IMG/VR virus record: IMGVR_UViG_3300024999_000343
Coordinates: 1-26,511 of that record
DNA: 26,511 nucleotides
Direction: 5' to 3' (one strand)
Source: a virus
Taxonomy: Duplodnaviria; Caudoviricetes
Numbering within the stretch: the stretch's first letter is position 1; every line of letters starts with the position of its first letter. Below the pieces are notes generated by a model that saw only the letters and a program-made list of their open reading frames with translations, ran no database searches and was not told the origin of the DNA. Positions 2,064 through 26,400 of this stretch are shown here, one piece after another. The position numbers and the translations under genes were made by a program.

Positions 2064-2100
2064 ATCTTACCTCCCTTGCTTAAATTTAAATTTAAAAAAT

Positions 2101-2127
2101 AAAAAGAGAGTATATTTCAACTCTCTT
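2101..2127 (-). terminator. intrinsic terminator after major capsid gene
   Basis: Minus strand AAGAGAGT-loop-ACTCTCTTTTT. Confidence 0.75.
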
Positions 2128-2137
2128 AAATATTTAA

Positions 2138-3295
2138 TTAACCAGTTACACCATAGATAGAAGCATGTTTCTTAGGATTGCGAATTTCCAAACCACATTC
2201 AGTAATATACTGTTCTTTGATACCATCTTCATCATTATCTTGAAGATTAGTTTCAAGTTTAGTATCTCTACCTTTTAACGGACGATATTTTACTTCTTTA
2301 ACATCAAGAACAACACCATTATATGTAGAATCATTTAAAATTCTGTCATAAACAATATTTAAAATACCAAACGGAGAAATGTATTGGAATACAGATAATC
2401 CGTATTTCTTTGCTTCTTGATTAATTTGAAGTTTACCTAATGCCCAACCATTGATAACAGAAAGTAATGTAGCATCTGCAAAAAGCATTTTCTCATCATT
2501 ACCATAAAGAAAAGCATTTTTACATAAATTCTGCTCAAAATTAGCTTGTGTCAATGTACCGTTGGCATTATATATGTTTTCTGTTGCAAAAGATAAAATA
2601 CCACCTGTTGCTCTAGCTACATAAGTACCAGAAGTATCTAATTTCTTCTGTCCAAAATAAAATGCTCTACCAATATCAATCAAGTGTTGAATACCAGCTT
2701 TATTTCTCTGATAAGCTAATTCATCTACTCCACCATAAACAGAAGTAGCTTTAGCAGTACCAGAAATACCAAAAGGTGTTTTGAAGATTTGAGTATAGTT
2801 AAATTTATCTTCTACTTCAGTAGTTTTAGCAACTCTAGTACCAGAAAATTCCTGACTAACATTACCAACAATTAATACTACAGCATTATCAGCAATAATA
2901 GCAGCCGTAGTAGTGCCATATGCCCTAGTCACAGTAATTTCGTTCACGTTGTCACCATCAGGATTTAATGCAGTTACAATCATATTTTCATTAGTAGCTA
3001 CAGCATTAACAATATCACCTATTGCAAAAATAGTACCATCATCAAAAATCAATTTTGTTACATCAGCAGCAGCATTGCCAGCCATATTTAATTGTGTTTT
3101 TCTACCAACTAAATCATCTTCTAACCAATGAAATTTAGGATTGGTAGCATCTTCCTTCATAGTTTTTACTTGCTTTAAAAGTGAAATAAAAGGTGTTTCA
3201 GTCGGAGATAGAGTTGCGATTACGTTACTCATATCTATAATTTGTTTTGCAGTTACAATGTTTGCGGTTGTTAATACTCCATTAATATTTCCCAT
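2138..3295 (-). CDS. major capsid protein (HK97 fold, SU10/DUF5309-like)
   Basis: 385 aa. SPTETPFISLL, FHWLED, NYTQIFK and C-terminal ECGLEIRNPKKHA motifs; follows the scaffold and is followed by a terminator. Confidence 0.88.
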   Translation of the reverse strand: MGNINGVLTTANIVTAKQIIDMSNVIATLSPTETPFISLLKQVKTMKEDATNPKFHWLEDDLVGRKTQLNMAGNAAADVTKLIFDDGTIFAIGDIVNAVATNENMIVTALNPDGDNVNEITVTRAYGTTTAAIIADNAVVLIVGNVSQEFSGTRVAKTTEVEDKFNYTQIFKTPFGISGTAKATSVYGGVDELAYQRNKAGIQHLIDIGRAFYFGQKKLDTSGTYVARATGGILSFATENIYNANGTLTQANFEQNLCKNAFLYGNDEKMLFADATLLSVINGWALGKLQINQEAKKYGLSVFQYISPFGILNIVYDRILNDSTYNGVVLDVKEVKYRPLKGRDTKLETNLQDNDEDGIKEQYITECGLEIRNPKKHASIYGVTG

Positions 3296-6352: not shown

Positions 6353-8077
6353 CTAATAGCCTGTCCTTGAATTAACTGGTCTATATTCTTCATAATCATC
6401 TATTTCATTTGCTTCATCTGGATTATAGTATTTTTGTGAATCAACATAAGCACATATAGCCAGCGATAGCACTCTATCATCATGTTTTAGAGATTGTGCT
6501 TGTGGTTTACCTTTATCATCATAGACAAAAGTAATAAATTCTTCTATTGTTTCTTTGCAATTTATTTTTATTAAATCATCTCTAAACATACGAATAAGAT
6601 TATCAATAATTAATTTTCTATTGTTTTGCATAGTACGCCAACCATATTCTTGAATAGTTTTATTGCTTACGCTATCAACATTTTCTTTTCGTTTATAGAT
6701 GTTTTTATAAATTGGTTTAAGTGAGGATAAGAAACTACCACCAGAAGTATTATTTAATTCTGGAACAACTAATGCACGATTGTAAAATCTTGCTAACATT
6801 TCAATTTCTTTAGCAAATAAGTCAGGGTCAATATGTCCATGAAATTGTGCAACTTGTTCTTTGTTTTTCCTATTTAAAACATCTGCACATGAATAGTCAC
6901 CATGTTTTAAACCTTCAGCAGTATCTACAGATATTATGTATTCTTGTCCATCAATAGGAAATTCCCATATAGATAGATAACCTTTTTTACTAGAATTAAA
7001 TTGTACTCTTTTATTTACTTCAATTATATTACCTTTTTTTAAAGGATTTTTACATTTATTATTTTTGTAATATTCACATTTATTATGATTAAAAACAGGT
7101 CTACCAGATGATAAAAATGCTTCATTATCATTTGATGGATATTCTTGTTTAAACTTTTCTTCATCACCATTACAATTATTCTTAATACACCATCTACGCC
7201 ATTTTAATTGTTCAGGAGATAAATTATATGCTTTTTGAAGCTCAATTTCTTCATCAGTTAATTTTAATACTTCACCTTCATCTAATTCCATTTGATAATC
7301 TTTGTGTTCAAACCATGCAAAAAATAAAGGTATAAAATCATTTAATCCTTTTTTGGCATTAGTATATAATTCATAAAAATAATCACCTATACCATTTGCA
7401 GTAGATTCAACGATAATTATTGAATTTTTAGAATATGGTACTGATTGTAATAATCCTAACATTGTTTCTTTTGGTGAAGGCATAAAAGCTAATTCAGATA
7501 CGTGTAAATAGTGAATAGTATTTGAACGTCCTGCACCAGAACCTTTAGCTGTAATCATTCTCATTTTAGAACGTAAACCTGGATTTTCTTGTTTCTCTTT
7601 TACTTCTTTTGTTGGATTTTCAAATATTAATTGTTGTGAATTATTTGATTTAACCATAGGACGCATTTCATCAGGTAATTCATCTAAAAACAATTTAGAC
7701 ATATTAAATAAGTTAGTTGTGGATTCTTCTAAGTGTGCTATAATTGTTGTATTAATGTTTTCCTGTGTTGAAGTTAAATGAAATAATTTACCTTCTGTAT
7801 ATGTTGAAGCGCCCTCTTGTCTAGCTTTAAGGATTACTAATCTAACTGGTTTATTTAAACTACGTTGTTTTTCAATTATTTTATCTAATTTAATTTGAAT
7901 TGAATTTAGTTTAAATTTTTTTAATTCACCTTCTTTAGTGCGTATTTTTAAATTTTTATAAGCATAAAAAGGGAATTCAGTTAATGATTTTTGTATAATA
8001 TCTGCTTCAGTTAAACCTTTTTTTTGCTCTGATTTAGTTATTTTTAACTTGTGTTGCTCTGATTTTTTAATAGTTAT
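6353..8077 (-). CDS. terL: terminase large subunit, extended 125 codons beyond the ORF track; probable ATA start
   Basis: The frame is open from 7702 up to a TGA at 8087-8089. The extension contains the ATPase motif ILKARQEGAST. Downstream are LHVSE (Walker B), VESTANG and the nuclease motifs VDTAEG/HDDRV. Confidence 0.93.
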   Translation of the reverse strand: MTIKKSEQHKLKITKSEQKKGLTEADIIQKSLTEFPFYAYKNLKIRTKEGELKKFKLNSIQIKLDKIIEKQRSLNKPVRLVILKARQEGASTYTEGKLFHLTSTQENINTTIIAHLEESTTNLFNMSKLFLDELPDEMRPMVKSNNSQQLIFENPTKEVKEKQENPGLRSKMRMITAKGSGAGRSNTIHYLHVSELAFMPSPKETMLGLLQSVPYSKNSIIIVESTANGIGDYFYELYTNAKKGLNDFIPLFFAWFEHKDYQMELDEGEVLKLTDEEIELQKAYNLSPEQLKWRRWCIKNNCNGDEEKFKQEYPSNDNEAFLSSGRPVFNHNKCEYYKNNKCKNPLKKGNIIEVNKRVQFNSSKKGYLSIWEFPIDGQEYIISVDTAEGLKHGDYSCADVLNRKNKEQVAQFHGHIDPDLFAKEIEMLARFYNRALVVPELNNTSGGSFLSSLKPIYKNIYKRKENVDSVSNKTIQEYGWRTMQNNRKLIIDNLIRMFRDDLIKINCKETIEEFITFVYDDKGKPQAQSLKHDDRVLSLAICAYVDSQKYYNPDEANEIDDYEEYRPVNSRTGY

Positions 8078-8214
8078 TTTATATGTTCACCTCTTTTTCT
8101 TTTCTCTTCTAAGAGATATTCACGTTGCTTTGCTTTACGTTGTTTTTTAGTTGTATGTTTGCTTGTTATTGAATAGTTTAATTCATTTAATAATTTGTCA
8201 ATTTTACTAGACAT
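8074..8214 (-). CDS. 46-aa basic protein upstream of terL
   Basis: AGGAG SD and ATG; MSSKIDKLLNELNYSITSKHTTKKQRKAKQREYLLEEKRKRGEHIK*. The stop overlaps the proposed terL start (ATAA). Confidence 0.65.
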   Translation of the reverse strand: MSSKIDKLLNELNYSITSKHTTKKQRKAKQREYLLEEKRKRGEHIK

Positions 8215-8340
8215 TATAGCAACTCCTGTTTATATATTGATTATTTGACATTACACTTAGTGTTAAAAACATAGTAAAATCAATGGTTTAGAGTATATTG
8301 GCAATTTTATATATGTACTCTGATAGCCATATATTATATT

Positions 8341-8596: not shown

Positions 8597-8624
8597 ACTT
8601 CCGATAATAAATATTATGTAAACT
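8597..8624 (+). other. dif: dif-like XerC/XerD recombination site
   Basis: ACTTCCGATAA-TAAATA-TTATGTAAACT. The right arm is identical to the B. subtilis dif as I recall it (ACTTCCTAGAATATATATTATGTAAACT), with 11-6-11 layout. Confidence 0.85.
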
Positions 8625-13260: not shown

Positions 13261-13428
13261 CTATCCAAATCTACTCTTCCATTCATCAATATCAATTCCC
13301 ATTGTTTCTTTCAATGCTATTTTCAATTCTTCAATAACATCTATACCTTCATAAAATTCACTCAAATCACATACTTCTCTACCACAACAATCAATACAAT
13401 CTATGTCTTGATTCCCACAAGGTGACAA
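13261..13428 (-). CDS. 55-aa Cys-rich acidic protein
   Basis: TTG start after AAGGATGTGA; MSPCGNQDIDCIDCCGREVCDLSEFYEGIDVIEELKIALKETMGIDIDEWKSRFG*. Confidence 0.5.
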   Translation of the reverse strand: MSPCGNQDIDCIDCCGREVCDLSEFYEGIDVIEELKIALKETMGIDIDEWKSRFG

Positions 13429-13770
13429 TTTTCATATCACATCCTTTCCTCGGCAAAGTCCCCCTCTCTTAAACCTAACAATAACAATACTTTTGATTAA
13501 AATTTACCTCTAAATTAGCCAAAATCTGTCCACCCTCTCCACAGCTACAGGATGGCTAAATCTAACCACCCTTTCCACTGGTCTTTTAAACGCAAATTTA
13601 AGCCTAAATAAGACACTTAAATTATCTCTACCTAAACTTATACCTTTTAAAAATTATCTCTTAATCTAGCCTTAAAATTTCGCATTTTTACGCATAGCAA
13701 AAACTACTATAAACCTACTAATATTAATACTTTATAGACATAATTAAAAATAATTAATTTTTAGCTTATT

Positions 13771-14859: not shown

Positions 14860-17496
14860 TTATTTAAATGCTTGCAAAAAGTTTTCTTTGTGTCCTTTGT
14901 AAAGAGCATTTAATAAATCTAATTTTCTTTGACATTCTTCAAATTCATCACTTAGCAATATTTTTACAACTGTTTCAATTTTAACCTTGTATTTTTTTAC
15001 TTGATACATTCCATCAGATATAACATCATCAATAGAATTATATTTTTCTTTCTTATCTATTTTACTATACTTTTCCATAAGTTTATATGTTGCTTCAATT
15101 GCTTTAATAGAATTTGACATTTTTACAACATTTTCAATAATACCTTTTACTTGTCTATCTTTTGCTTTACTTGTATCTACATCTTTTAAAAGTTTACTAT
15201 TATTCATAGTGATAGTATTTTTCCATTTTGCATCAGGTAAATTATCCATTGCATCAAACAAATAATCCATAGCTGTATCATAATGTTTAGTAGTTATTTT
15301 TTCATTTTGTGATACATATTTAAAGAAATCAGGTTTTTCTTTGCGTAACAATCCACTATCATATAAATATTTAATTTGTTCTGATATATCAATATCATAT
15401 AACCTCTTAGCACTATCTATAGATATCTCTGACAAAATTGTACAAATATCTATACAATTTAATAACTTATCTAAGTCTTTATTATTTTTATTTTTAATCC
15501 TATGCCAATACTCACTTAAAAATAGTGCTCCTAAATTAACTACTGTGCCTATATTGAATTGTGATTTTGCAAGGATATTGTCAATCTTAGCATGGTCACT
15601 AGAATTTACTGCATATGGTACAGGAGATTTAGCTACATTATTTACACAAACACGATAATTTGATTCATCACTTTTTATGTAACATTTTCTTGCTAATTCT
15701 AATAATTTACAATTGGAAAATAATACTAAATTATCACTATCAAGGTCTTGACCTGATAAGATTCGACAAATAGGGAAGTTTATAGAATTTACATAAATGA
15801 TATTATCACTCATTACAAAATAATCTTCAATGAATTTAACTTTCTTATTTTTCACTATCAATACATTAGATTGAGCAGTATGTGGATTTCTAAAGCCAAC
15901 ATATTCACAATTAAAATCATGCAATGTAGTATAAATTTCATTATCCTTTAATATCATTTTACTTTCCCATTCCTTAAAATTAAGGATACCTTTTTCAACT
16001 GGTAGTTGTCTTATAGCATGATATAATAATTCCTTACCGTTTCCAAGGATTGTACAGTAATCACCATTCAGTCTAATTTTACCTTTTTTAACGTGATTTA
16101 CATAATTATGAATATCTTTTGTTCTTTTGTTTTTGAATAAATCTAAATTAACTATATTCTTATTCTTCATATATAAATCAACTAACATATTGTTGCAATT
16201 TATATTATTTGCATTTTGCTTTAAATATTCAATATATGTATCATCATTATTTTTTAATTCCATTACATATTCACATTCAAAGAAACTTAAATCTTTCATA
16301 TCACTATATGAGATAGGCATACTGTTTAGCATCTGGTATGAAGTCTGTTGTAAAATATTATCTTCATAATCTCTACCTCTTTTTGATTCTTTATCATATT
16401 TAACAACACCAAATTGATTATTTTCTTTTTTAACTTTTTCTTTCCAATGTTTCCACATTTTAGGTTTACTACCTTTTATATCAGAAAATTTTAAGGCTTT
16501 CAATGATGCAGGAGTTAATATCATATGTATTTCACTAGCTAACATTGGTTCATTGAACATATTATTTATTTTCCATGTGTCAAAATCAATATCATCAGGA
16601 CAATTATCTCTAAGAAACTTTTGAATATCACATGCAAAAGCACAACATTTTGCCATATGTTGACGTAATAATTGCATTGTTTTACCTTCTGGAAAATATT
16701 CCAATTGTAGCAAACCTTCACCATCAAAAATATCATTTTCCATCATATAGTTATCTACTGGATTACTAACTAACTTACCTTCTTCATCCTTCTCAACTAC
16801 ATTACAATCAATAGGAAATATAGATTTAACATCATCAACAATAAGAATATTATCAGGATTAATTTTAATAAAATAATCTACACTTGAAGAAACTAAACTT
16901 TCATAGGCTAATAATGAAGGGAAATCACAATCATCTCTATCATCTAAATTCATTCCTAACCTTGCCCATTTAATCATTTCATATCTCATTGATTCCTTTA
17001 TAAAAAGTACCTGAGAAGTGCGACTTTTTGCACTACTCCGTTTGTAAACAGTATACCTTACTTTTTTACCTTCAATTTCTAATTCAAATCCATCTACATA
17101 TAATTTTTCTCTTAAATCGTCAATACTAATACTTTCCCAATCATCTTTACTTTTGAAGAATTCAATTCTAATATCCTCTTTATTTTTCTTTTTTATTGAT
17201 TTTGCTATGTCTTTTCCTGATTTAATACCTTTCCTGAATTTCACATTTATTATATCATTTGTCATTACTTTATTATATCTTTTGCTATCAAATGTTTTAA
17301 GTCCTGTTTCCTTTAATTTTACTAATTCTGAAGAATGAGGAAACATACCAACAAATGAAGTATGTAATTCTTTTTTCTCTGTGACTATTTTACCATTTTC
17401 ATCAATAATATAATTCTCTCTATTCATATTCTCATATAAATCTGCACCTTCAATAGACATAATATAAACATTATTATTTTTATTTTCTTTTTTCAT
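14860..17496 (-). CDS. YonO-like / RdRP-like single-subunit double-psi-barrel RNA polymerase
   Basis: 878 aa. Motifs YKRSSAKSR, IFDGEG, LLRQHMAKC, GFRNPH and LSGQDLDSD (DxDGD-type metal loop), followed by IG..VN and SIDSAKR. Confidence 0.82.
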   Translation of the reverse strand: MKKENKNNNVYIMSIEGADLYENMNRENYIIDENGKIVTEKKELHTSFVGMFPHSSELVKLKETGLKTFDSKRYNKVMTNDIINVKFRKGIKSGKDIAKSIKKKNKEDIRIEFFKSKDDWESISIDDLREKLYVDGFELEIEGKKVRYTVYKRSSAKSRTSQVLFIKESMRYEMIKWARLGMNLDDRDDCDFPSLLAYESLVSSSVDYFIKINPDNILIVDDVKSIFPIDCNVVEKDEEGKLVSNPVDNYMMENDIFDGEGLLQLEYFPEGKTMQLLRQHMAKCCAFACDIQKFLRDNCPDDIDFDTWKINNMFNEPMLASEIHMILTPASLKALKFSDIKGSKPKMWKHWKEKVKKENNQFGVVKYDKESKRGRDYEDNILQQTSYQMLNSMPISYSDMKDLSFFECEYVMELKNNDDTYIEYLKQNANNINCNNMLVDLYMKNKNIVNLDLFKNKRTKDIHNYVNHVKKGKIRLNGDYCTILGNGKELLYHAIRQLPVEKGILNFKEWESKMILKDNEIYTTLHDFNCEYVGFRNPHTAQSNVLIVKNKKVKFIEDYFVMSDNIIYVNSINFPICRILSGQDLDSDNLVLFSNCKLLELARKCYIKSDESNYRVCVNNVAKSPVPYAVNSSDHAKIDNILAKSQFNIGTVVNLGALFLSEYWHRIKNKNNKDLDKLLNCIDICTILSEISIDSAKRLYDIDISEQIKYLYDSGLLRKEKPDFFKYVSQNEKITTKHYDTAMDYLFDAMDNLPDAKWKNTITMNNSKLLKDVDTSKAKDRQVKGIIENVVKMSNSIKAIEATYKLMEKYSKIDKKEKYNSIDDVISDGMYQVKKYKVKIETVVKILLSDEFEECQRKLDLLNALYKGHKENFLQAFK

Positions 17497-19073: not shown

Positions 19074-19279
19074 TCTTTATATTATTTTATTCTTTATACT
19101 ATTTTATTCTTTATACTATTTAGTTCTTTATACACTCTGGAAGTATACACATTTTGTGTTGTGTAATTTTATTATGCAGTACACATTTTGTGTTATAAAA
19201 ATTGATTCTCCTATACACATTTTGTGTTATAAAAGTCAAATATGATGATTTTCATATCACATTTTGTGTATAGGAGAAT
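19074..19279. repeat. putative replication origin: AT-rich 17-bp tandem repeats plus palindromic iterons
   Basis: TCTTTATA(C/T)TATTTTAT x3.5 at 19074-19133; CACATTTTGTGT x4 at 19148, 19182, 19216 and 19258; 15-bp inverted repeat 19205-19219/19265-19279. Confidence 0.75.
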
Positions 19280-19285
19280 TTAATT

Positions 19286-19456
19286 TTATTTTGGTGTAAT
19301 ATCCTTTAAATCTTTTTGTAATTGTTCATTGTTCACAAAATAAAATATTAAATATCTCCTATCCCTCCTATCTCTATCAATAGAATATATTCTATGTCCT
19401 TTGTCTAATAAATAATTAGCATCATTAAAATTTCTAATTACTTGTGTAGTTTTCAT
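19286..19456 (-). CDS. small DUF5659-like protein
   Basis: ANYLLDKGHRI...LIFYFVNNEQLQKDL pattern. Confidence 0.55.
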   Translation of the reverse strand: MKTTQVIRNFNDANYLLDKGHRIYSIDRDRRDRRYLIFYFVNNEQLQKDLKDITPK

Positions 19457-22440: not shown

Positions 22441-22495
22441 TTCTATTATTTTTCGACACGACATAGAATTAAACATACAAAAAAACAGAAGGGAA

Positions 22496-22762
22496 GTGAT
22501 ACAAATTAGTAGATATAACTTTCATCTTAATGAAGAATATGATAATGATATTATTGAATTTATTAAGAATCATAAGAATCAATCAAGAATAATTAGAGAT
22601 ATGTTACGCCTTGCATATCAAGCTATGAAGTCAATTCCTACACCAATTCCTACACCAAAAACACATACTAAAATTGATACGCAAAAAACACATACGCCTA
22701 TTGTCCCTGAAAAAAAGAAGCCTCCCAATGATAAAATCAAATGGAAGATTCCTGTCAATTAA
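22496..22762 (+). CDS. ribbon-helix-helix-like (ParR/StbB-like) protein
   Basis: RYNFHLNEEYDNDIIEFIK...QSRIIRDMLR beta-alpha-alpha pattern, then a P/T/K-rich tail. Start uncertain (GTG 22496 or ATT 22505). Confidence 0.5.
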   Translation: MIQISRYNFHLNEEYDNDIIEFIKNHKNQSRIIRDMLRLAYQAMKSIPTPIPTPKTHTKIDTQKTHTPIVPEKKKPPNDKIKWKIPVN

Positions 22763-22865
22763 TATTTTATTTTTCCATAAATTACAATTTAATATTGGTA
22801 TATTTCTGCCTTTACCCAGCATATATTTTATATTATAAAATAACATTAGATTTTTTCTACTCTCT

Positions 22866-22894
22866 GGCAGGATAAACACTATCTTGCTTTTTTT
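22866..22894 (+). terminator. intrinsic terminator
   Basis: GGCAGGATA-AACAC-TATCTTGCT-TTTTTT. Confidence 0.7.
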
Positions 22895-22897
22895 ATG

Positions 22898-22963
22898 CTA
22901 ATAAACACCTAAAATTCTAGCTACTGTATCAATTAAAGCTATTCCTGCTAAAAATAATGGCAT
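22898..22963 (-). CDS. 21-aa hydrophobic peptide
   Basis: AGGAGG 8 nt before ATG; MPLFLAGIALIDTVARILGVY*. Confidence 0.6.
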   Translation of the reverse strand: MPLFLAGIALIDTVARILGVY

Positions 22964-22996
22964 GTTCATTACCTCCTGTTGTTTTATTGATGATGT

Positions 22997-23026
22997 TATT
23001 ATGCTCCGTACCGATTTAAATTATTC
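22997..23026 (-). promoter_or_regulatory. sigmaG-type (forespore) promoter
   Basis: GAATA-18-CATAATA matches the B. subtilis sigmaG consensus GHATA-N17/18-CATAHTA. Confidence 0.6.
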
Positions 23027-23142
23027 ACAAAGAAGGTGTAAATTTATGGATTTTTTAAACCATATTTTTAACTATGGTGAATTAATTTGTGTTTTATCTC
23101 TTATCTATTTCATATATAAAAAAATTAAGTAGGAGTGATACA

Positions 23143-23445
23143 ATGAAAAAAATTATAACTTCTACTATATTTATATCATCTATATTTATATTTCCTTCAA
23201 TGGGATTTTGCTATAATAATGAATTAAGTACAGCTTTTAATAATGGTATTATGCCAATTTTAATAGATATTGGAAAAGTAATATTCTCCTGTTCTGTTGT
23301 ATATGGAAGTTATTACATTATGAGGAAACAATATGTAGTAGGAATAGACAGTATAAAATGGGCAGCTATAGGATTTATTTCTCTTAGGTTATGTCAAGGA
23401 TTTACTAATTTAGTTGACAGTATTGCTAATGGATTGAAATTTTAG
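23143..23445 (+). CDS. membrane protein with TrbC/VirB2 pilin-like topology
   Basis: AGGAGTGA SD; N-terminal signal-like segment plus two hydrophobic helices separated by 'MRKQYVVGIDSIKWAAIG'. Confidence 0.55.
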   Translation: MKKIITSTIFISSIFIFPSMGFCYNNELSTAFNNGIMPILIDIGKVIFSCSVVYGSYYIMRKQYVVGIDSIKWAAIGFISLRLCQGFTNLVDSIANGLKF

Positions 23446-23456
23446 GAAGTGATAAT

Positions 23457-23681
23457 ATGCTAGTTGAAATTAGTGATTATCTTTCAGGAAAAATTTATGA
23501 TTTAATACTACCTAAATTTTCATTTATTACAATTTTTGATGTTGGTTGTTGTATCTGTCTTTGTGTGACAGTATTATCTTGCTATATGGTCATTATGAAT
23601 AGAAAGAAATATGCTAATTATCTATATTACTCTTGTATGTTTTATACTATCTTCAGATTAATGTCAGTTATATTTGTCTAG
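23457..23681 (+). CDS. small two-TM membrane protein
   Basis: 74 aa, two hydrophobic segments around NRKK. Confidence 0.65.
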   Translation: MLVEISDYLSGKIYDLILPKFSFITIFDVGCCICLCVTVLSCYMVIMNRKKYANYLYYSCMFYTIFRLMSVIFV

Positions 23682-23684
23682 GAG

Positions 23685-25973
23685 GTGATACCATTTTTTA
23701 AAATAGAATCATCTAATTATTCCCACATTCAGATTATACCAGATATTTCAGTTGAAAATGGATTGAAGAATATAAAACTTATTCAGTCCATTTATTCTAC
23801 TATATATAAAGATTTATTTAGCAGAATTAGTTTTAAAAATGGAAAAATTATTTATACTAAAAAACAATATATTTCTTATTATATAGTATTTACTAATAAT
23901 AAAATATCTTTTCACATGTGCTTACCTTCCGAAACAATTGATTTTATTTCAAATAGATATATACAAACATTTCCAAACATAACAATATTATCTTCAAATA
24001 ATCCTTTGGATATTTTAAATTTAAATAGGACAACGCAATTTAACCTTATCCAAAAAGAAGAAAATTTCAAGTCATTGAATTGTGATATGCGAAGCGAAAA
24101 TCCAATTCCTGCTCTCTTATCTATTTCTAAAGACATTAAAGAAAATGACATTGTTATATTTGAAATTAATTTGTCTACATTGGATGAATTTGCAAAAGAA
24201 TTATTAGAGAATCAGAAACTAAAATATGTTAAATCTACCAATAAATTTCCTAATAAAACTATCGTAGATAAAATATTTTCTATAATACCAATTACATTAG
24301 ATGTTATATTTGCAATTTTTGATATACTGTTTTCTATGAAAAATAATGATGATAGTATATCAAAAAAACCATCTTTTTCTAGTTATACTAATCAGAAAAT
24401 TACTTATGATTTATTTGATGCAATGATTAGAGTATTTGTTCAATCAAATGATTTAGTCAAACAAGAACAAATTGGTAAATCAATTGAAGTTTGTCTTAGA
24501 GATATTTCAGGTGATAATGAATTAATGATAGGCAAAAAATTACAACCAAAAAATACTAAAGTAAAATTTAACTATGTTAAAAATATATATTCAGCTAAAG
24601 AAATCGCTGTATTCATGCAATTGCCTACTAGATATTATCAACAGGAATATTCAATTATTGAAAGTATTGATACTAAAGAAATGAATTTACCGAAACAATT
24701 ATTTGAAAATGGAATACCAATTGGTGAAGTAAAGTATAAAGGTGTCGTGAAAACTGCATCTTGGAATATAAAGGATAAAGATGTTACTTCACTTCCATTG
24801 GCAATTTTTGGGATGCAAGGTGCAGGGAAAAGTGAATATATAACAAACTATGCTATTTCATGTGTAGAAAATAATCAAAGTCTATTTGTTTTAGATGGGA
24901 TAAAGAATTGTGAGTTGTCAGAAAATATAATAAATAATTTACCTGAAAATTTTAACAAAATATGTATATTAGATTTTTCTGATACAGATTATATTTTTGG
25001 ATTAAATTGGGATGAAATTAAGAATAGCAAGATTGACAATAAAAGTAAGATGTATATATCAAATCAGATTACACAACAATTGATATTGTTTCTTGATTCT
25101 CTTGTTGATGATAATGTACAAAAATTAAGTCCAAGAATGAAAAGATTTCTTACTTCTGCTGGTTTGCTAGTTTTCAGTTTGCCTAATACTACTATATTAG
25201 ATGTATTGAATTGCCTTATTGACATTGATAAAAGACATAAATTCATAAAACAATCAAAATTAACTAAGAATAGTAAGATTGTTCAAGACTTAAATATGCT
25301 AGATAAAAATGGTGATACGAATATTCCAGATGTGAAAGGTATTATTGATAGGTTAGATTTACTTTTAGGTGATTATCTATTATCAAATTTGTTTTCTATG
25401 CAAGCAAATAAAAATATTAATTTTAAATATTTTGCAGAAAATGGATATGTTGTTGTTTGTAAAATGCCACAAGTGAATATGTCAGATAAAACAATTGATA
25501 GTATTATGACATTTTTAATTTCAAAGATATGGTTATCTCATTTGACTAAAATAAATAATGATATAATAAGCAATGTAATAATAGATGAAATTCATAGGTA
25601 TCCTACAGCTAGAAAATTGCTTGACAATATAAGGGAAATGAGAAAATATGGATTAAAATATGTTTTTTCTGCACATAAACCAAGTGATTTTAAAGATTTA
25701 CTTATAACTCTTAAATCTGCTGGAAGTAGTTATATGTTATTTAATACCAGTAAAGAGAATTTGAAATTGTTTGAGGAAGAATTAAATCCTTTTTCGATTG
25801 AAGAATGTATGAATACTAAAAAATATCATGCTAAATGTATTGTAAATTATGATAAGCAATACTGTGTATTTGATGCAAAAATAATACCTCCAATATTAAA
25901 GAAAAGTATAGATAGAAGTTACATTTATAAAGAATGTCAGAAAAAATATGGTGTTAAAAATAACTCTTTTTAG
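23685..25973 (+). CDS. FtsK/HerA-superfamily (VirD4/VirB4-like) P-loop ATPase
   Basis: Walker A GMQGAGKS, VLDG, Walker B IIDEIH, EMRKYG, FSAH; hydrophobic segment around aa 197-217. Confidence 0.8.
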   Translation: MIPFFKIESSNYSHIQIIPDISVENGLKNIKLIQSIYSTIYKDLFSRISFKNGKIIYTKKQYISYYIVFTNNKISFHMCLPSETIDFISNRYIQTFPNITILSSNNPLDILNLNRTTQFNLIQKEENFKSLNCDMRSENPIPALLSISKDIKENDIVIFEINLSTLDEFAKELLENQKLKYVKSTNKFPNKTIVDKIFSIIPITLDVIFAIFDILFSMKNNDDSISKKPSFSSYTNQKITYDLFDAMIRVFVQSNDLVKQEQIGKSIEVCLRDISGDNELMIGKKLQPKNTKVKFNYVKNIYSAKEIAVFMQLPTRYYQQEYSIIESIDTKEMNLPKQLFENGIPIGEVKYKGVVKTASWNIKDKDVTSLPLAIFGMQGAGKSEYITNYAISCVENNQSLFVLDGIKNCELSENIINNLPENFNKICILDFSDTDYIFGLNWDEIKNSKIDNKSKMYISNQITQQLILFLDSLVDDNVQKLSPRMKRFLTSAGLLVFSLPNTTILDVLNCLIDIDKRHKFIKQSKLTKNSKIVQDLNMLDKNGDTNIPDVKGIIDRLDLLLGDYLLSNLFSMQANKNINFKYFAENGYVVVCKMPQVNMSDKTIDSIMTFLISKIWLSHLTKINNDIISNVIIDEIHRYPTARKLLDNIREMRKYGLKYVFSAHKPSDFKDLLITLKSAGSSYMLFNTSKENLKLFEEELNPFSIEECMNTKKYHAKCIVNYDKQYCVFDAKIIPPILKKSIDRSYIYKECQKKYGVKNNSF

Positions 25974-25986
25974 GGTTATTTTTTTT
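25956..25986. terminator. bidirectional intrinsic terminator between convergent genes
   Basis: AAAAATAACTCT-TTTT-AGGGTTATTTTTT. Confidence 0.7.
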
Positions 25987-26007
25987 ATAACTTCTATCAT
26001 TATTAAT

Positions 26008-26400
26008 CTACTTCACTAAAAATTCCTTCGCTTTTTCAGTAATAATATTTTCTACTTCTTTAACTACTTTTGCTTTTGTATCAGATACTTTTGCTTCAAC
26101 ATAACTTCTTATCATATTTTCATCAATAGGAAGTTTCTTGCTTTTAAAAATTTCTGCAATAGTATTTACAGCACTTTCTTTTTTCATATTATTTGACATA
26201 TCAGAGAATTCTTGATTAATTGCTTTTATTACATTTTCAATAATAGTTTCTTTTAATTTATTTTGTTCAGTAGAAGTTTGAATATTAATTAAATCTTTCT
26301 TACTATTGATAAAAGTAACTATTGCTTTCCCTGCAAATGCTATAAATGCTGAAATTATAGTAGCTACTGCTAATGCTAATTGACTATAAATATCTTCCAT
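26008..26400 (-). CDS. phage holin (LL-H-like)
   Basis: Single N-terminal TM, then 'VIKAINQ...KKESA...IRSYVEAKV' pattern. Confidence 0.72.
   Translation of the reverse strand: MEDIYSQLALAVATIISAFIAFAGKAIVTFINSKKDLINIQTSTEQNKLKETIIENVIKAINQEFSDMSNNMKKESAVNTIAEIFKSKKLPIDENMIRSYVEAKVSDTKAKVVKEVENIITEKAKEFLVK

Follow-up and report, generated by a model that had tools for sequence, protein, structure and literature searches.

A pilin-like and VirB4-like gene cassette shared by phages and plasmids of spore-forming bacteria, with a possible role during host sporulation

Introduction

What use could a phage make of a pilin-like membrane protein and a large ATPase, encoded side by side with no relaxase gene in evidence? 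The question is raised by a locus in a 26,511-nt stretch of a caudoviral record (IMG/VR IMGVR_UViG_3300024999_000343; hereafter the window). The initial annotation described a VirD4/HerA-like ATPase with two small membrane proteins and proposed a translocase that moves a plasmid prophage across the sporulation septum or between cells. The entry of phage genomes into endospores has so far been only partly explained, and a 2026 paper implicated host-like segregation genes and Spo0A boxes in it (PMC12991052).

Results

Organization of the cassette

The genes of the cassette (Table 1) are tightly packed, with gaps of 11 nt between the 100-aa and 74-aa genes and of 3 nt between the 74-aa and ATPase genes. 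The ATPase stop codon lies 34 nt from that of a convergent holin gene, in an interval with a hairpin and T-run (-10.5 kcal/mol on the + strand, -6.5 on the - strand) that is absent from the list given by a strict terminator scan. The tight three-gene operon, as first described, is borne out by these reading frames and gaps, with the hairpin as its probable bidirectional terminator, except that the operon has a fourth gene, a 28-aa ORF which, like a divergent 21-aa ORF, had been overlooked. The 28-aa ORF has an RBS and is conserved in loci L006, L016 and L030, with similar short ORFs in L020, L026 and L066. For the 100-aa gene, an ATG start with an RBS agrees with homologue lengths of 99–101 aa. 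An RHH/ParR-like gene does precede the operon, but 283 nt, including a conserved terminator, intervene between its end and the first cassette gene.

Table 1. Coordinates of the features of the cassette region and of one context site in the window.
Feature	Position	Strand	Basis
dif-like 28-bp site (context, outside the cassette)	8597–8624	+	exact match to an XerD-arm motif
Spo0A box (0A box) without mismatch, 44 nt ahead of the RHH-like gene	22452–22458	-	motif match; weak
RHH/ParR-like small DNA-binding protein gene, 88 aa, SPP1 gp31 slot	22496–22762	+	slot profile
SigmaE-type promoter match	22798–22827	+	13/13 match, shuffle p 0.005
Intrinsic-terminator-like hairpin with T-run	22866–22895	+	-9.9 kcal/mol; stem kept in L006, L016, L030
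Hydrophobic micropeptide gene, 21 aa, unannotated, strong RBS, divergent from the cassette	22898–22963	-	recurrence across loci
SigmaF/sigmaG (forespore)-type promoter aimed at the micropeptide; -35 at 23022–23026, -10 at 22997–23003, 18-nt spacer	22997–23026	-	pattern match
ORF of 28 aa, unannotated, short hydrophobic stretch and basic tail, first operon gene	23046–23132	+	RBS and conservation
VirB2/TrbC pilin-like membrane protein gene, 100 aa, SPP1 gp31.1 slot	23143–23445	+	slot profile
Second two-helix membrane protein gene, 74 aa, SPP1 gp31.2 slot	23457–23681	+	slot profile
VirB4-like ATPase gene, 762 aa, phrog_5156, homologue of SPP1 gp32/SPO1 gp27.4	23685–25973	+	homology and model
Hairpin with T-runs, probable bidirectional terminator, interval between ATPase and convergent holin genes	25959–25990 (ends approximate)		folding energy

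The small proteins were placed using slot profiles built without window-like rows and with SPP1 among the members. In each case the profile put the window protein first of 632 window segments, with E 0.003 for the 100-aa protein (18 distant slot members), E 2.5e-6 for the 74-aa protein (11 distant members) and E 0.005 for the RHH-like protein (20 slot genes from other loci), so that a small DNA-binding gene and two small membrane genes lie upstream of the ATPase gene in the SPP1 order. In the pilin slot, 5/21 members matched the T4SS_pilin profile and 3/21 the TrbC profile at E up to 0.05, one of them above the curated cut-off; the 100-aa window protein itself matched neither. An Atlas score of 0.88 for this protein as pilin-like was taken as a lead only. 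Its model is a helical hairpin, with which Foldseek returned nothing at E up to 0.001. The 74-aa slot showed a weak similarity to the pilin slot in a profile-profile comparison (probability 78%, E 1.8e-5, 50 columns), and no match of the 74-aa protein to VirB3 was obtained in Pfam, PDB sequences or Atlas. Each of the two small proteins has the look of a pilin-type membrane hairpin, and for the 74-aa protein a paralogue of the pilin and a VirB3-like anchor are the two candidates. The 88-aa protein gave no RHH match in Pfam, and we infer its RHH fold.

A VirB4-like ATPase

The window ATPase matched phrog_5156 (E 8e-116), SPO1 gp27.4 (E 9e-24) and SPP1 gp32 (tblastn E 1e-11, 99% coverage, about 22% identity); searches by sequence gave no PDB match at E up to 1 and no family-level match, VirB4 included, in Pfam and NCBIfam. 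The model (pLDDT 84) has a soluble alpha/beta domain over the N-terminal ~330 residues, and the C-terminal part is a RecA-like motor of the VirB4 type in which the Walker A and B motifs are intact, K382 and E635 being present in 126/126 homologues. All ten top Foldseek rows were chains of the R388 T4SS (TrwK/VirB4 or the inner-membrane complex; 857–894 columns, E 9e-16 to 1e-11), whereas HerA and TrwB aligned to the C-terminal half only. In the VIA structure comparison, Thermoanaerobacter VirB4 (PDB 4ag5) ranked first (Z 26.8, rmsd 3.7, 336 aligned) in a tie with DndH-C (Z 26.2), and the HerA motor domain reached Z 24.1 over residues 329–739 only. TrwK was the sole VIA-listed row covering residues 7–746, and the full-length alignments, to TrwK alone and made with the whole model, gave TM 0.26–0.34 and rmsd 12–17. 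The ATPase has no hydrophobic segment before residue 193 that would correspond to the N-terminal transmembrane anchor of VirD4/TrwB, and the operon holds no nuclease partner gene for a HerA-type system. On these models the protein best resembles a full-length VirB4, rather than the VirD4 or HerA proposed initially.

The order VirB2-VirB3-VirB4 is canonical in T4SSs, and the window resembles this core (R388 TrwL/M/K; 4ag5) in having a pilin-like gene, a small membrane gene and a VirB4-fold ATPase gene; unlike in the T4SS core, no VirB6, VirB8, coupling protein or relaxase was found, and the second small protein resembles the pilin slot, with no VirB3 match obtained. As a minimal set of pilin-like protein and ATPase, the cassette may be analogous to the crenarchaeal Ced system of DNA import, in which pilin-like membrane proteins and a VirB4/HerA-type ATPase move DNA without a relaxase; Ced differs in its large membrane protein and in its location on archaeal chromosomes.

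Genome context

Comparison with a related genome, near-identical over the window and rated complete by CheckV (100%; G001, about 39.3–39.4 kb) showed that the window covers only ~26.5 kb of a genome of that size. Neither the window nor G001 yielded a relaxase, integrase, ParM or ParA, either as a Pfam or PHROG match or in profile searches of 469 six-frame segments (best E 0.19–0.64), Replic_Relax being searched with its own profile and other relaxase families through Pfam alone. The best values for ParM and ParA in G001 were E 0.19 and E 0.56, so that no motor gene of a ParMRC or ParABS system was found, and Pfam and PHROG scans gave no VirB6, VirB8 or coupling protein. The complete gene set of a conjugative T4SS (relaxase, coupling protein and VirB6/VirB8) was accordingly not found in G001, and the absences noted at first for the window hold for the complete relative as well.

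Two further elements of the initial annotation were recovered, namely iteron-like repeats at 19146–19289 and a site that we take to be dif-like from an XerD-arm motif. This site shows 3 differences to one in the genome G002 and 5 to the single site in one Bacillaceae genome; the exact 28-mer was found in 0/5 genomes at 3 mismatches and a relaxed pattern in 1/5, and none of the matches listed has a contig end at the site. The genome has traits of a phage-plasmid (circular, no integrase found, iteron-like repeats, dif-like site), yet lytic phages carry the cassette too, and a dif site can also serve integration through host Xer (PMC2731167). A sigma70-type promoter scan of the window was uninformative (74 sites vs 83 expected).

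Relatives and distribution

By sequence comparison, the cassette is a homologue of SPP1 gp31–gp32 and of an operon of SPO1 and 0305phi8-36, and is not new; the module was already in print in 2012 and 2018. A translocon had been proposed for SPP1 gp31/31.1/31.2/32 and GBK2 genes 29–32, genes 31.2 and 32 being reported as non-essential for lytic growth (Godinho 2018, PMC6316719), and a ‘DNA translocation operon’ had been described in 0305phi8-36 (orf200–207) and SPO1 (gp27.3, 27.4, 27.9), its deletion in 0305phi8-36 giving no plaque phenotype (Pathria 2012, PMC3357382). The window shares with SPP1 a gene order in which a small DNA-binding gene and two small membrane genes are followed by the large ATPase gene, as well as an antisense micro-ORF, and differs from it in the extra 28-aa gene, the gap with promoter and terminator after the RHH gene, SU10/P22-type head genes and the lack of a detected integrase. 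With SPO1 and 0305phi8-36 it shares a homologous ATPase, but a Replic_Relax/MobC relaxase and an actin-like gene also belong to their loci, and G001 yielded neither.

ATPase matches were nearly confined to elements of spore formers. In phage records, which include GenBank and RefSeq duplicates, 99/102 were named after spore-forming genera, two were D6E (host not given) and one was a Microcystis record; all 52/52 plasmid records came from spore-forming genera. As a control, SPP1 gp32 matched no Listeria or Enterococcus phage, whereas the neighbouring gp34.1 matched 16 and 11, respectively. The Microcystis record was rejected as an exception on account of its resemblance to a Basilisk-type phage: its ATPase and the Basilisk one (a Bacillus phage) share 50% identity, and the record has the micropeptide with a by-eye match to a forespore-type promoter, as well as SleB annotated nearby. 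Among 401 sampled genomes, 25 matched the ATPase, five of them near full length, including G344, which belongs to another family, and G325, which is without the small genes; at this level the link to sporulation was uninformative, with spoIVA in 5/5 near-full-length genomes but also in 322/401 sampled. In a quick ATPase tree (SH-aLRT support alone, skewed composition) the window falls in a mostly clostridial part. The loci counted here are related to one another in this tree and not independent.

The restriction to spore-former elements that the initial annotation set out for checking is thus largely upheld, but its second half, a tie to integrase-less plasmid prophages, fails. SPP1 and SPO1 are lytic, an integrase was present in the flank of 8/34 loci, and G002 has one elsewhere. 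In relatives at 63% and 82% ATPase identity a tyrosine integrase lies directly upstream of the cassette, which does not fit a cassette occupying the integrase slot beside the holin; that it replaces the integrase is ruled out by these relatives with both.

The relaxase tally bears on a cell-to-cell transfer device spreading phage or plasmid genomes, for example in biofilms, as proposed for 0305phi8-36 in a paper whose main text never uses the word ‘spore’ (PMC3357382). Homology to the T4SS core and presence on plasmids fit such a device, as do the Replic_Relax genes located after the ATPase gene in SPO1 (E 3e-12) and Tsamsa and one of weak similarity on pCLD. These three are the only Replic_Relax-like genes among 34 loci (flanks 0.5–8 kb), and no relaxase-like gene was found in the other 31/34 or in the whole of G001 or G002; 44/52 plasmid records were typed non-mobilizable. 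The reading of the initial annotation as a relaxase-less module is supported by these counts, the cassettes clearly not always accompanying full T4SS or relaxase genes. Transfer between cells, which would also leave the absence from phages of non-spore formers and the forespore-type promoter described below unexplained, is quite unlikely.

It is highly improbable that the cassette is cargo left from a decaying conjugative element. In phiCp-D the ATPase gene is split in two pieces, and L036 (a genome match) is without the small genes; however, the Walker residues are invariant across the homologues, the family comprises 484 clusters at 50% identity with E 1e-30 or better, and the genes stand in the same order from Clostridia through to Bacillus.

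A divergent micropeptide and sporulation-type promoters

An equivalent of the 21-aa micropeptide gene was present in 19/35 loci, against ~2 expected (background 0.064 per slot), and was not found in 16/35 at the thresholds used. SPP1 is among the 19, with an antisense micro-ORF of 17 aa that is absent from the annotation of its record. The forespore-type promoter of the window matched the pattern at 12/12 positions, a score reached by 0/300 shuffles, with consensus -35 and -10 elements and a spacer within 17–18 nt, and scores of at least 11 were obtained at 13/19 micropeptide loci vs 3/37 background micro-ORFs. The final sigmaF/sigmaG pattern was fitted by eye to Table S6 of PMC3789822, all promoter patterns being set by eye after the sequence had been seen.

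For the cassette itself, a sporulation-type promoter is weakly supported. The region ahead of the first operon gene scored 10.4 on average vs 10.0 in shuffles, like 18 other window genes, and scores of at least 12 occurred in 1/30 loci vs 0.9 expected. Four close loci have the sigmaE-type match at an unchanged spacing; outside the four closest it is not clear, and in most distant ones it was not seen. A perfect 0A box (motif as in PMC12991052) occurs also in L006 and L016, making 3/30 loci vs 0.8 expected, all three close relatives. As general features of the cassette, a sigmaE promoter and a Spo0A box were both set aside as weak beyond the closest relatives. Of the sporulation-type promoters initially claimed, a forespore-type one does adjoin the cassette, but evidence for one driving it is weak.

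The terminator lies ~40 nt downstream of the sigmaE-type match, and transcription from this match could either yield an antisense RNA of ~60 nt against the micropeptide mRNA or continue into the cassette. In type I toxin-antitoxin pairs an antisense RNA overlaps the 3' end of the toxin mRNA, and the short + strand RNA could overlap that of the micropeptide mRNA in the same way. On one reading the micropeptide would be a separate gene travelling along, such as a type I toxin-like addiction gene, beside a cassette with a vegetative membrane function (superinfection exclusion, receptor masking or an aid to DNA entry). HerA-type ATPases do occur in defence systems, and SPP1 genes 31–32 are placed under the early promoter PE5 in PMC6316719. 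Exclusion, however, need not be confined to spore formers, and distant loci do not retain the promoter-terminator pair; we regard this combination as unlikely.

Discussion

The reading we tentatively prefer, at somewhat below even chance, is that the cassette works during host sporulation and helps phage DNA into the forespore, whereby the spore would come to carry the phage. It is suggested by the VirB4-like fold, by the spore-forming hosts and by a micropeptide with a forespore-type promoter, as well as by ParM in the flank of 11/34 loci (a ParA tally of 6/34 was discarded because the ParM profile is matched by one of its seeds too, which leaves L033 and L059 as the specific cases). Dispensability for plaque growth in SPP1 and 0305phi8-36 points the same way, as does the formation of virospores by SPO1 (PMC12991052).

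In the proposed mechanism, a hexameric ATPase would be tethered at the membrane by the small proteins, perhaps aided by its own hydrophobic segment 193–211, and would move its proposed substrate, DNA, into the forespore. The RHH protein may control the locus or label phage DNA, the part that ParR plays where ParM comes before it. The micropeptide would be made in the forespore once the phage genome is there, and could mark or regulate the machine from that side. A bolder version, in which phages and plasmids of spore formers, lytic phages included, share a relaxase-independent VirB2/VirB4 pump that moves DNA across the sporulation septum, with the ATPase and pilin-like subunits on the mother-cell side and the micropeptide made in the forespore, is doubtful as a whole.

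Several observations argue against these proposals. The searches turned up neither a VirB6/VirB8-type channel protein nor a relaxase, and in conjugation the DNA-coupling ATPase is a protein other than VirB4. The early promoter of the SPP1 genes and the weak promoter evidence for the cassette itself speak against expression in sporulation. The micropeptide is divergent and was found in only part of the loci, its tie to the machine being presumed. The cassette is also present in integrating phages, to which the chromosome offers a way into the spore, and the relatedness of the loci and the setting of promoter patterns by eye weaken the counts.

A sporulation-stage cassette might also handle protein and not DNA, a VirB4-driven complex of pilin and membrane proteins altering spore formation, surface or germination to the advantage of the phage. 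VirB4 with VirB2 forms the pilus-assembly core of T4SSs, host restriction and the forespore-type promoter fit this role equally, and most loci are without a relaxase. M23 peptidase-like genes lie inside the cassettes of L027 and L028 (by eye), and MMB025 has a ‘metallo-endopeptidase’. The frequent adjacency of ParM/ParA partition genes points instead to DNA handling, and the open-access literature searched gave neither a sporulation role or phenotype of the module nor a mention of the micropeptide. Protein handling is possible, though we give it a low probability.

The module is a large family with members in the model phages SPP1 and SPO1, is not needed in plaque assays and has no known role. 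The present locus adds its persistence on a phage genome rated complete in which neither a relaxase nor an integrase nor a Par gene was found. Concrete grounds for testing the module in sporulating cells come from the micropeptide and its conserved forespore-type promoter, and SPP1invmir is an existing SPP1 mutant with a disrupted locus. If true, a two-compartment VirB2/VirB4 pump would supply the active mechanism so far missing for the entrapment of phages in spores.

Cassette layout and the carrying phage

The four cassette ORFs were present as described in the initial annotation, with intergenic gaps of 11 and 3 nt and a probable terminator between the ATPase and the convergent holin gene, but two further small genes (28 and 21 aa) had been overlooked. 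The RHH-like gene does precede the operon, but the two are 283 nt apart, and this gap holds a match to a sigmaE-type promoter as well as a conserved terminator. The module is real and conserved, and the cassette is a new copy within an already described family: Godinho et al. 2018 (PMC6316719) describe gp31, gp31.1, gp31.2 and gp32 of SPP1, note a resemblance to TrwB/VirB4/FtsK, put forward a translocon and report 31.2 and 32 as non-essential.

Features of the window and of compared loci
Feature	Location	Strand	Remark
Terminase-large ORF	6353-7702		449 aa; motor part seems short
Terminase large-small interval	7703-8240	-	AT-rich, coding-like
dif-like site	8597-8624		upstream of terminase genes
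dif-like site, G002	L011 about 7208-7235	-	
Segment matching both G001 ends	13338-13475		
878-aa protein, DLDSD motif	14860-17496	-	phrog_8308; weak matches to phage "RNA-dependent RNA polymerase" (E 1e-7)
Iteron-like repeats	19146-19289		three repeats, 34-nt spacing, plus one inverted copy; upstream of 62-aa and 429-aa genes
21-aa hydrophobic ORF (micropeptide)	22898-22963	-	divergent from cassette
28-aa ORF	23046-23132	+	first gene of operon
Holin	26040-26400		
SPO1 pilin-like gene, apparently gp29.1	L002 2421-2867		upstream of ParM, not adjoining ATPase
tRNA-like stretch	L016 about 2080-2170		integrase-RHH interval
tRNA-like stretch	L030 about 6450-6560		integrase-RHH interval
1221-aa protein	L005 12721-16386, outside window	-	LPD38 domain match

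Family profile matches (SU10-type major capsid, portal, terminase, RuvC, holin) identified a tailed phage. The near-identical IMG/VR record G001 (39,414 nt, CheckV 100%) was identical to the window at 99.99-100%, and one window segment matched both its ends, implying a circle of ~39.3 kb; its remaining portion carries genes for adaptor and tail-type proteins and for an amidase endolysin. Profiles for integrase, Replic_Relax relaxase, ParM and ParA detected none of these in G001 (469 segments; best E 0.19-0.64), and the same integrase profile did detect one in the related record G002 (E 2e-35). The public runs best covering the window are labelled groundwater metagenomes, with no RNA runs among them. 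Over the holin gene, runs X1 and X2 gave short, much deeper contigs with several differences; the gene is therefore shared with a related element of greater abundance.

The dif-like site and the iteron-like repeats, probably origin iterons, are real sequence features, but do not prove a plasmid prophage, since dif is also used for phage integration (PMC2731167). The dif-like site could serve dimer resolution or host-Xer integration. G002, which keeps the site, carries an integrase too. The cassette, an RNA polymerase-like gene and an HTH pair are common to the window and G002; the tail and lysis genes past the cassette differ between G002 and G001, and L030 has those of G002 type. The 878-aa protein, which is reminiscent of YonO-type phage RNA polymerase, here belongs to a phage of 39 kb whose head genes are of SU10/P22 type. 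The start of the terminase large subunit may lie further upstream, or the subunit may be split; the LPD38 protein is probably an ejected internal virion protein.

The ATPase and the small membrane proteins

The ATPase was assigned to phrog_5156 and is homologous along its length to SPP1 gp32 and SPO1 gp27.4, in a family of 484 clusters (50% identity) at E 1e-30; a quick tree placed it inside a well-supported 16-row group of mostly clostridial loci. Walker residues were unchanged in 126/126 sequences, and it is very improbable that the cassette is a remnant. For the structural model (pLDDT 84), the top ten Foldseek rows were R388 T4SS chains over 857-894 columns, with low TM-scores. The VirD4/HerA type first assigned was not supported as the closest one: HerA and TrwB aligned to the motor half only, and the VIA ranking placed Thermoanaerobacter VirB4 first (Z 26.8), tied with DndH-C, with HerA at 24.1 and TrwB at 23.3. 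VirB4-like is the best label, the N-terminal domain being a candidate for that type. An N-terminal membrane anchor was absent from both sequence and model; residues 193-211 are hydrophobic and poorly modelled.

Slot profiles, built from equivalent genes of distant loci with window-like rows left out, each put the window's own gene first among 632 segments. Pilin-slot members matched TrbC (3/21) or T4SS_pilin (5/21), and the gene is labelled TrbC/VirB2 in C. botulinum plasmid records; the window's protein matched neither profile. The second membrane protein was weakly similar to the pilin slot and gave no VirB3 match, and may therefore be a pilin paralogue or anchor. In SPO1 the pilin-like gene appears to lie apart from the ATPase.

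Distribution and sporulation signals

Phage matches were named after spore-forming genera in 99 of 102 records (duplicates included), the others being D6E (two, host not given) and Microcystis phage MaeS (one). All 52 plasmid matches came from such genera, 44 of them typed non-mobilizable. SPP1 gp32 had no matches in Listeria or Enterococcus phages, in which the control gp34.1 had 16 and 11. The MaeS ATPase clusters with that of Bacillus phage Basilisk (50% identity), and the MaeS record (L070, MT362618.1) contains the micropeptide, a forespore-type promoter match and an annotated SleB; it resembles a Basilisk-type Bacillus phage, and Microcystis may be the wrong host. A genome-level sporulation test was uninformative because spoIVA was already present in 322/401 sampled genomes.

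Among 34 loci chosen by us from the matches (flanks 0.5-8 kb; profiles seeded partly from the same loci), a relaxase-like gene lay near the cassette in 3, ParM in 11 and integrase in 8, the integrase profile missing the annotated one of D6E. Integrase-less phages are thus not the limit, although the phage and plasmid matches came almost only from spore-former elements. The module is independent of lifestyle, and the argument that the cassette takes the integrase's place in a plasmid prophage therefore falls; in the close relatives L016 and L030 an integrase even adjoins it. The tRNA-like stretches there, found by eye in short frames, are probably attP.

In 19 of 35 loci (two of the 35 proved not to be full cassettes) the ATPase is preceded, at a distance of 150-1500 nt, by an antisense hydrophobic micro-ORF that has an RBS, against ~2 expected from background; six further candidates, outside thresholds or locus set, were seen by eye. 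A forespore sigmaF/sigmaG pattern of at least 11/12 preceded 13 of the 19, compared with 3 of 37 background micro-ORFs, in loci that share ancestry and so are not independent counts. An initial forespore pattern, before adjustment to reference promoters, gave shuffle p <=0.03 in 7/14 loci. Patterns were set by eye against the reference promoters that Saujet et al. 2013 (PMC3789822) list in their Tables S6 and S7. A sporulation-type promoter match is present at the micropeptide, but the cassette's own 13/13 sigmaE-type match and Spo0A box are confined mainly to the window and its closest relatives, with little enrichment elsewhere; support for sporulation control of the cassette itself is weaker.

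Possible role of the module

In structure the module looks like a membrane-bound motor of VirB4 type whose subunits resemble pilins; given the range of hosts and the forespore promoter, it would act while the host sporulates. An exclusion-type role in vegetative cells is unlikely; the SPP1 module is placed under early promoter PE5 in Godinho et al. 2018 (PMC6316719). Transfer between cells ranks below exclusion; Pathria et al. 2012 (PMC3357382) propose it in biofilms for the version in 0305phi8-36 and SPO1, which has a relaxase, whereas no Replic_Relax relaxase was detected in G001. Deletion of that version caused no plaque defect, and this dispensability, with the frequent linkage to partition genes, suggests that the benefit to the phage would be entry of its genome into the spore; entrapment of SPO1 in spores is described in Magalie et al. 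2026 (PMC12991052).

A sporulation-stage membrane motor bringing the phage genome into the spore is accordingly only our tentative preference. No channel protein was evident for such a motor, and VirB4 is not normally the coupler of DNA. A protein-handling role in sporulation, which would share the timing, is rather unlikely, ranking above exclusion. The forespore-type micropeptide lets the question of the module's role be tested directly in SPP1 and SPO1.
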